Source: Escherichia phage ST4 | Length of the DNA stretch: 64,000 nt | Strand: one strand, 5' to 3' | Sequence record: OM982646 | Part shown: positions 14,576 to 15,157 of the stretch, in pieces | Position numbering within the stretch: the stretch's first letter is position 1 | Layout: each line of letters begins with the position of its first letter | Notes under the pieces: generated by a model | The model's database searches: none | Told to the model about the DNA's origin: nothing | Seen by the model: the letters and a program-made list of their open reading frames with translations, nothing else | Position numbers and translations under genes: made by a program

Positions 14576-15157
14576 TTAGGCTCCTAGTTTCCACTTATAG
14601 CCATATGCTTGCGCATACGTACCATTAATTACTTGATTAATATTAGAGGGTATGCCATTAACACTTCGTGCAGCAGCACTAAGTGAATGGAATGTCTTAA
14701 TGTATTCGCCATCTAGTGAGTACTGCTCAACAGGCTTAGCTGATTTAGTATTGATGCCATTGATTGCATCAGAGTAGTACCTCTTTACGTTGGTATTAGC
14801 TGTAACAATACGAATGTTATCCAGGGAATAACCTTTGTAATCATCCAGTCTGTCCAAGCTAGGTTTCAAGGCAGTTGGATAATCTTCCAATACCCACTTG
14901 TCATACAATGTGTGAAATTCTTTGCTTGAGTATACCCATTTCTCTAGCTCCTCCTTAGTGAAGGATACGGGAGTAAATCCCTTCTTCTTGGTTCTACTAA
15001 TAGAACTGGAGTACATTTGATTAATGACCCCATGTTTTGAACGGATAAAGCGTTTAAGGCAGTCTTTACAGTCTGCCCTAACACCCTGTTTGCCAGTGGA
15101 CTGTTTATTGAACATGTCCAGAGGCAAGTTCTTCTTACATACTGAACATGTCTTCAT
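14576..15157 (-). CDS. HNH-family homing endonuclease-like protein
   Basis: 193 aa; N-terminal CxxC...CxxC zinc ribbon, SLDRLDDYKGYSLDNIRIV HNH-like core, C-terminal NUMOD1-like segment; packed between the two RNAP II genes with 1-2 nt gaps. Confidence 0.6.
   Translation of the reverse strand: MKTCSVCKKNLPLDMFNKQSTGKQGVRADCKDCLKRFIRSKHGVINQMYSSSISRTKKKGFTPVSFTKEELEKWVYSSKEFHTLYDKWVLEDYPTALKPSLDRLDDYKGYSLDNIRIVTANTNVKRYYSDAINGINTKSAKPVEQYSLDGEYIKTFHSLSAAARSVNGIPSNINQVINGTYAQAYGYKWKLGA

Follow-up and report, generated by a model that had tools for sequence, protein, structure and literature searches.

A probable PacI-type homing endonuclease gene between the RNA polymerase II subunit genes of Escherichia phage ST4

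A 193-amino acid (aa) open reading frame (ORF) with an ATG start was found at 14576..15157 on the minus strand of the 64,000-nucleotide (nt) stretch of Escherichia phage ST4 analyzed here (sequence record OM982646; the window), between the genes for the two subunits of RNA polymerase II. This ORF is probably a free-standing homing endonuclease gene, orthologous to gp15.1 of phage G7C, that is an old resident of the polymerase junction and whose product is of the PacI type. That the ORF is a genuine gene rather than a chance reading frame is shown by its full-length match to phrog_1035 (4e-30), 40 database homologues, and a ratio of nonsynonymous to synonymous substitution rates (dN/dS) of 0.05-0.13 among five phage copies. 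When all six-frame ORFs of the window were searched with a hidden Markov model of the family, no paralogue was found besides the ORF itself.

Gene position and the G7C orthologue

Every gene around the endonuclease ORF lies on the minus strand. RNAP1 (15159..15977) encodes the N4 gp15-like N-terminal subunit of RNA polymerase II; it matched phrog_2166 'N4-like RNA polymerase' (2e-116), contains DKRGR, and corresponds to G7C gp15. RNAP2 (13357..14574) encodes the N4 gp16-like catalytic subunit; it matched phrog_2051 (4e-178) and Pfam RNA_pol (8e-15) and corresponds to G7C gp16. These matches bear out an initial annotation, made from the sequence alone, which had placed the 193-aa ORF between the two subunit genes. 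The tight junctions it described were also found, but its gaps of 1-2 nt were both exactly 1 nt: base 15158 lies between the RNAP1 stop codon (15159-15161) and the endonuclease ATG (15157-15155), and base 14575 lies between the endonuclease stop codon (14576-14578) and the RNAP2 ATG at 14574.

The gene was already known. Its annotation in G7C dates from 2011-2012, and its place between the polymerase genes was taken up in print in 2017. G7C (HQ259105) gp15.1 (AEL79623.1/YP_004782142.1) is likewise 193 aa long, with 95.3% aa and 90% nucleotide identity to the ORF. It occupies the same place between gp15 (RNAP1) and gp16 (RNAP2) with the same 1-nt junctions, and no difference of substance was seen. 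The G7C record names it a 'putative HNH homing endonuclease', and the published labels are HNH or 'endonuclease VII'; a PacI-type active site is not among them. Five HNH homing endonuclease genes were counted in G7C (Fouts et al., 2013; PMC3670811). Amgarten et al. (2017; PMC5418858) discussed the gene between RNAP1 and RNAP2 and proposed that insertion of a homing endonuclease split an ancestral T7-type polymerase. The gene as such is an ordinary finding; what is added here is the reassignment to the PacI type, a hot spot with several occupants, and the gene's long association with the split polymerase.

Domain architecture and nuclease type

Three parts were recognized in the 193-aa protein: an N-terminal Cys4 zinc ribbon of the form CxxC...CxxC (C4, C7, C30, C33; 15059..15148, minus strand), a beta-beta-alpha-metal nuclease core without histidine (aa 99-132, with D102, R103, Y110, N114, and N123; 14762..14863, minus strand), and a NUMOD1 helix-turn-helix DNA-binding module (Pfam PF07453; aa 141-174; 14636..14737, minus strand). 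The NUMOD1 match had an E-value of 1.5e-7 and 31.9 bits against a cut-off of 22.8, and the folded C-terminal tail extends beyond it to approximately aa 191. The four ribbon cysteines are the only ones in the protein and are enough for one zinc site.

The zinc ribbon, the core stretch SLDRLDDYKGYSLDNIRIV (aa 100-118), and the NUMOD1 tail had all been pointed out in the initial annotation, and all three were found. Its description of the core as HNH-like held at the level of the fold but failed at the level of the family and in the implied chemistry, as Arg replaces His. Of the Pfam matches it had suggested looking for, NUMOD1 scored above its cut-off, but HNH_3 (PF13392) gave nothing at E<=1; nor did HNH or Endonuclease_7. 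The canonical HNH assignment was rejected on these negative results and a PacI-type assignment was preferred.

The hhalign alignment of the family profile with the PacI sequence had a probability of 92% (E 6.7e-7), and its 98 columns extended from the zinc ribbon through the beta-beta-alpha core. Homology was detectable outside the active-site motif, from the N-terminal CxxC...CxxC of PacI onward, to which the zinc ribbon aligned. Against PDB sequences, the family profile matched I-HmuI (E 0.009) and PacI (E 0.23); in that PacI alignment GVDRSDSFEGYSPQNARLACFICN of PacI paired with the family sequence SvDRiDdYkgYsLdNiqlvtvkeN. D102, R103, Y110, N114, and N123 corresponded to PacI D92, R93, Y100, N104, and N113, and the spacings (8, 4, and 9) were the same in both proteins. 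Putative metal ligands were shared as well: D102 and N123 aligned with PacI D92 and N113, and D102 with I-HmuI D74. PacI has no catalytic histidine; a loop tyrosine acts as general base or nucleophile, and an Asp and an Asn bind a single metal ion (PMC5714182, PMC4081073).

Conservation was measured in the 106 best family representatives of normal length, sharing no more than 50% mutual identity. The position of the HNH catalytic His, at the end of strand 1, is R103 in the 193-aa protein and was Arg in 100% of these representatives. Y110 was conserved in 100%, D102 in 99%, and N123 in 99%; overall the D, R, Y, N, and N residues were 95-100% conserved and the four cysteines 93-94%. Invariant residues of the family alignment were P99, S100, D102, R103, Y110, L112, and N123, with N114 nearly invariant. 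An AlphaFold (AF2) model of the protein (predicted local distance difference test score 92.7) formed the beta-beta-alpha unit from residues 99-103, 115-119, and 120-132. In the model D102 and R103 end strand 1, Y110 lies in the inter-strand loop, and N123 lies in the helix.

Judged by these alignments, the nuclease core is a PacI-type His-Me finger that is predicted to work without histidine. D102 and N123 would be placed to hold a single metal ion, and Y110, in the inter-strand loop, would do what histidine does in ordinary HNH enzymes, with R103 at the His position. Given its NUMOD1 tail, the protein may act as a monomer on a long, asymmetric site, as I-HmuI or I-TevI does.

In an exhaustive profile search, 2,051 representatives of 50%-identity clusters matched at E<=1e-30; the family is patchily distributed. 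The reassignment would correct the label of this large family of approximately 2,000 clusters, which is annotated as 'HNH' or 'endonuclease VII' and carries the rare His-free PacI active site. Pfam has no model for the PacI-type domain of these endonucleases. The strongest matches to the family profile (P0041-P0047 and others) were proteins of 600-1,800 aa in which only the NUMOD tail was matched, 7-14 times in tandem. By sequence, these long proteins appear to be arrays of NUMOD-like DNA-binding repeats.

Distribution and occupants of the RNAP1|RNAP2 junction

Comparison genomes belonged to Gamaleyavirus (G7C-like, N4-like coliphages; Schitoviridae) and shared 88-94% nucleotide identity with the region; the best match was phage Bas96 (93.8%). 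The gene was present in 6 of 62 related phage records, representing four phages: Bas96, PGN829.1, G7C, and Moonfish. Together with the window these make up the five carriers.

A survey of the RNAP1|RNAP2 gap, covering 21 distinct Gamaleyavirus loci and not exhaustive, revealed at least eight states. The gap was empty in phi G17, where a 55-nt spacer with a hairpin separates the polymerase genes. Small ORFs were found in several phages: orfA (36-44 aa) in CU10EC and L017, orfB (53 aa) in PhAPEC7, orfC (79 aa) in VTCC322, and combinations of small ORFs in E20 and 24-32N. Endonuclease genes occupied the gap elsewhere: an HNH_3-AP2 endonuclease of type 1 (168 aa) in UE-M6 and L013, an HNH_3-AP2 endonuclease of type 2 (168 aa) in PW8 and L010, the 193-aa PacI-like gene in the five carriers, and a second PacI-like gene of 204 aa, 33% identical to the 193-aa one, in HK2 and pSb-1. 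Both 168-aa genes encode canonical HNH enzymes; that of UE-M6 matched Pfam HNH_3 (2e-14) and AP2, and that of PW8 matched phrog_99 'HNH endonuclease'. Every carrier had 1-nt junctions on either side of the 193-aa gene.

In Gamaleyaviruses, four different endonuclease genes make use of the RNAP1|RNAP2 junction, which is a hot spot for cassettes. The initial annotation had read the ORF as a mobile homing endonuclease gene and had suggested a comparison with relatives in which the polymerase genes are adjacent; its occurrence in 6 of 62 records, the empty allele of phi G17, and the other cassettes in the same gap all agree with that reading. Occupation of this position in all relatives, together with the lack of any endonuclease-domain match, was looked for as counter-evidence and was not observed.

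The small gap ORFs alternated or combined among loci (L002, L019, L020, L022, L025, L017, L011, L014, and L015), and each of the three started inside or on the last RNAP1 codons. Proteins encoded by orfA (36-44 aa) read 'MINHRAVxDFYAHRELV...'; those of orfB had 53 aa and those of orfC 79-80 aa. PHROGs without assigned function were matched by orfB (phrog_15352) and orfC (phrog_5444), and orfA had no match. The idea that the small ORFs are decayed endonuclease remnants was not supported: orfB and orfC have PHROGs of their own, and tblastn with the endonuclease found nothing in those gaps. At locus L013 (IMGVR_UViG_3300006879_000003, 4316-5056) the HNH_3-AP2 endonuclease gene was followed by a copy of the last 21 RNAP1 codons (4837-4899) and then by orfA. 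This duplication looks like the footprint left by recombination in the RNAP1 3' end when a cassette was inserted.

Flanking sequence, expression signals, and a model for homing

A Shine-Dalgarno-like GAGGA lies at 15163..15167 (minus strand), in the last two RNAP1 sense codons (GAG GAT) and 5 nt upstream of the endonuclease ATG. GAGGA stood in these codons with each of the four endonuclease types in the gap. Endonuclease-free alleles had GAAGAC, GATGAG, GATGAT, or AATGAT at this position in every case. The GAGGA is a candidate ribosome-binding site for the endonuclease.

A second Shine-Dalgarno-like sequence, AGGAG (14581..14585, minus strand), lies in the last endonuclease codons, 6 nt upstream of the RNAP2 ATG. 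In the carriers the native spacer, with its hairpin and AAGGAA, was wholly replaced, and the AGGAG within the endonuclease codons was the sole one upstream of RNAP2. RNAP2 translation would depend on this element at the endonuclease 3' end. Downstream, an intrinsic terminator-like hairpin (13325..13350, minus strand) with an 11-bp stem followed by the T-run TTTATTTTTT closes the RNAP1-endonuclease-RNAP2 unit. No Rfam match was found in 13000-16500 at E<=1, and the ORFs are separate with their own start and stop codons; the reading of the gene as intron-encoded was rejected on both counts. With no intron signature present and a strong terminator after RNAP2, the three genes look like one translationally coupled unit.

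Terminator-like sites numbered 6 here, more than the 2.3 expected from shuffled sequence, and another strong terminator-like hairpin, on both strands, lies downstream of RNAP2 at 13097-13116. No sigma-70-like promoter was found directly upstream of the endonuclease ORF; such sites were fewer than in shuffled controls, and the result is uninformative as an N4-like phage uses its own polymerases. The endonuclease-free and most other alleles (phi G17, which is L021; also L003, L007, and L002) had a short hairpin in the spacer before the RNAP2 ATG. This hairpin occurred in two sequence variants, GAGCCAATAGGCTC and GGCTCTCCATAGTGGGGAGCC, and was wholly lost in carriers of the 193-aa gene; it may serve in RNA processing, in attenuation, or as a promoter of a phage polymerase.

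The RNAP2 5' end of the carriers was set apart by a divergent patch at 14515..14574 (minus strand). Compared with phi G17, the first 60 nt of RNAP2 had 23 differences and the 540 nt that follow had 38 (Fisher p 3.7e-10). The patch was present in five of five carriers and in none of the 16 non-carriers, and it is a candidate immune target site or co-conversion tract. Inheritance of the patch from a distant carrier lineage was considered and dropped, as the L026 sequence matched it at 42 of 60 positions against 41 of 60 for endonuclease-free alleles.

These features are consistent with the following course of homing. The endonuclease gene would be transcribed together with the early polymerase genes and coupled to them in translation, and its product would be made early. 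The enzyme would bind DNA through its NUMOD1 tail and cut by a one-metal, tyrosine-assisted mechanism of the PacI type. In a mixed infection, endonuclease-free genomes would be cut close to where RNAP1 and RNAP2 meet, the conserved ~55 nt at the start of RNAP2 being the likeliest target. Repair by recombination with a carrier genome would then copy the gene and its immediate flanks, and the carrier allele would be protected by the substitution cluster in the RNAP2 5' patch. The analysis shows the anatomy, homology, distribution, linked haplotype, and selection; cleavage, its target site, homing, and the translational coupling are inferred.

Selection, age, and alternative explanations

Among the five carriers, the endonuclease gene (dN/dS as given above) showed a synonymous divergence (dS) of 0.18-1.0; in the flanking polymerase genes of the same carriers dS was 0.28-0.78 and dN/dS 0.03-0.09. 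Ranked by pairwise distance, the carriers fell in a different order for the endonuclease gene than for RNAP1, a result that exchange between them could explain. Homologues at 40-51% identity also abutted the RNAP2 start in L026, L031, L032, L033, and Vibrio phage pVco-5, phages whose polymerase genes were 30-57% identical to those of the window. In L026, RNAP1, the endonuclease, and RNAP2 were 54, 49, and 51% identical to their counterparts in the window; in pVco-5 the values were 30, 40, and 33-35%. More distant family members (38-44%) were located elsewhere, for example beside a capsid gene. The endonuclease lineage has long been tied to the RNAP2 5' end and has been kept intact by selection.

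Several points weigh against a homing endonuclease of the PacI type. The usual catalytic histidine is absent, and the tyrosine mechanism is carried over from PacI by alignment; the second zinc site of PacI (CGYC...CFIC) has no counterpart in the 193-aa protein. For this protein and its close relatives cleavage and homing are predictions, and the one PacI-like phage enzyme assayed in vivo, from a Skunavirus, had no exclusion activity (PMC12724721). Rather than determining immunity, the RNAP2 patch could be a tract acquired by recombination with a divergent donor. Purifying selection of polymerase strength and long residence at one site are unlike the classic course of a homing endonuclease gene that invades and decays, and would also fit a function that benefits the phage.

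Such a function is the content of the alternative that survives best, although we consider it unlikely: the product or its translation would now be needed by the phage, as a translational coupler for RNAP2, as a DNA-binding regulator of early or middle transcription, or as a marker-exclusion weapon against competing phages with little or no self-copying. A dN/dS as low as that of essential polymerase genes speaks for this alternative, which draws further on the loss of the native spacer and ribosome-binding site in carriers, where the only AGGAG for RNAP2 stands in the last codons of the ORF, and on the lineage abutting the RNAP2 start in five other N4-like lineages. Most Gamaleyaviruses, however, do without the gene and have nothing, small unrelated ORFs, or unrelated endonucleases in its place. 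Coupling would constrain the 3' end of the ORF only, not the catalytic residues, which are 95-100% conserved, and marker exclusion is a normal by-product of homing and no true alternative to it.

Quite improbable is a dead HNH relic, its His changed to Arg, that persists as a DNA-binding protein or as neutral baggage. The core without histidine, the lack of a Pfam HNH match, and the inactivity of the PacI-like Skunavirus enzyme in the assay used (PMC12724721) would suit a relic, and activity of the 193-aa protein is a prediction. Decay would not, however, leave D-R-Y-N-N invariant over more than 100 diverse representatives, nor would it yield a residue-for-residue match to the active site of PacI, an active enzyme. 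The dN/dS of 0.05-0.13 excludes neutral drift, and the size and patchy distribution of the family also speak against a relic.

A recent insertion, in which the gene reached the phage lineage shortly before sampling as the initial annotation had supposed, is the least credible alternative: sporadic presence in the genus and a slightly lower guanine-cytosine content of the ORF than of its flanks (0.38-0.40 vs 0.42-0.44) would agree with it, but the gene is not recent, because its dS, up to 1.0, equals or exceeds that of the flanks and relatives at 40-51% identity hold the same position in phages with equally diverged polymerase genes, and the 1-nt junctions on both sides in all carriers likewise tell against it.

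Comparison with known systems

The nearest counterpart of the nuclease core is R.PacI (PDB 3ldy/3m7k; His-Me finger group 20, Jablonska et al., 2017). Shared features included the CxxC...CxxC ribbon, a helical linker, a core of beta-beta-alpha-metal type, and the D-R...Y...N...N residues at identical spacing, with the catalytic His absent in both. R.PacI differs in being a homodimeric restriction enzyme of 142 aa that has another Cys4 site, lacks a NUMOD tail, and recognizes an 8-bp palindrome; the 193-aa protein has one Cys4 site and a NUMOD1 tail, is encoded by a mobile phage gene, and is approximately 19-29% identical to R.PacI over the aligned part. I-HmuI (PDB 1u3e), an HNH nicking endonuclease of the H-N-N type from Bacillus phage SPO1, shares a NUMOD1-type tail with the 193-aa protein, as does I-TevI. 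It differs in its D74-H75 general base (D102-R103 here), in lacking a zinc ribbon, and in being encoded in a group I intron rather than free-standing.

With respect to genomic setting, a free-standing HNH gene, mobE, reportedly lies between nrdA and nrdB in T-even phages (Wilson & Edgell, 2009; Friedrich et al., 2007), and its mobility is reported to have been shown experimentally. It resembles the present gene in being a sporadic, free-standing endonuclease gene that lies between, or within, genes encoding components of an essential multi-subunit nucleic-acid enzyme, and differs in belonging to a canonical HNH family and in its host genes. In Aeromonas phage Aeh1 a mobE insertion splits nrdA (case cited in PMC5418858). 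A variably present 'PacI-like HNHE', PacI-like by HHpred, was described in lactococcal Skunavirus phages (PMC12724721, 2025). These enzymes are from another phage group and another insertion site, and may be related to the 193-aa family.

Implications for the polymerase split

A more far-reaching interpretation, which we regard as speculative and rather unlikely, is that the endonuclease lineage is an ancient companion of the polymerase split. The lineage would have co-diverged with RNAP1 and RNAP2 since before the separation of enterobacterial, Vibrio, and other N4-like phages. Its origin could lie in the element that, by inserting, split an ancestral T7-type single-subunit polymerase into the two-subunit enzyme, and in carriers it would now be coupled to RNAP2 expression through translation. 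It would also be the first homing endonuclease that is of the PacI type, depends on tyrosine, and has a defined natural target. The hypothesis of a polymerase-splitting element was already voiced by Amgarten et al. (2017; PMC5418858). If true, coupling to RNAP2 would explain purifying selection of polymerase grade on a 'selfish' gene. The junction offers a natural candidate target for a PacI-type enzyme and, with its multiple occupants, a convenient system for studying competition among homing endonucleases and the idea that such elements made the split polymerase.

Introns and endonuclease genes in RNAP2 of relatives

Endonuclease genes were also observed inside RNAP2 in relatives. In Shigella phage Moonfish (L004; 1560-3745, minus strand) a group I intron (Rfam RF00028; 2482-2725; 91 bits, E 2e-22) interrupted RNAP2 right after catalytic motif C ('...LTVHD'). 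The intron encodes the HNH_3 and AP2 endonuclease gp56 (HNH_3 6e-15), and in the record each exon is annotated as an 'RNA polymerase' gene of its own. The layout was the same in L026, where RNAP2 ended in '...VAVHD*' and was followed by a 214-aa HNH_3 ORF and then by a 75-aa ORF resembling exon 2.

A second point of interruption lay at motif B (after '...AVMT' and before 'YGS', approximately aa 140-144) in pVco-5 (L005; 3632-5728), Acinetobacter phage XC38 (L006; 850-2924), and L032 (786-2408). The motif B ORFs of pVco-5 and XC38 matched phrog_1035 (E 1e-40 and 8e-32) and were PacI-like without the NUMOD tail; that of L032 was an HNH_3 gene. Sub-threshold group I intron matches (36-38 bits, E ~1e-6) stood beside the motif B ORFs. 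PacI-like endonucleases are probably also intron-encoded in the RNAP2 genes of pVco-5 and XC38.

In UE-M6 (L003) and pSb-1 (L008/L016), RNAP2 contained a divergent patch at approximately nt 780-1000 (approximately aa 260-330, just upstream of motif C), with 45-75% nucleotide identity compared with more than 90% elsewhere. The RNAP2 of pSb-1 is annotated as two overlapping genes (gp55/gp56). Both the patch and the split annotation may have been left behind by earlier traffic of introns or endonucleases at motif C.

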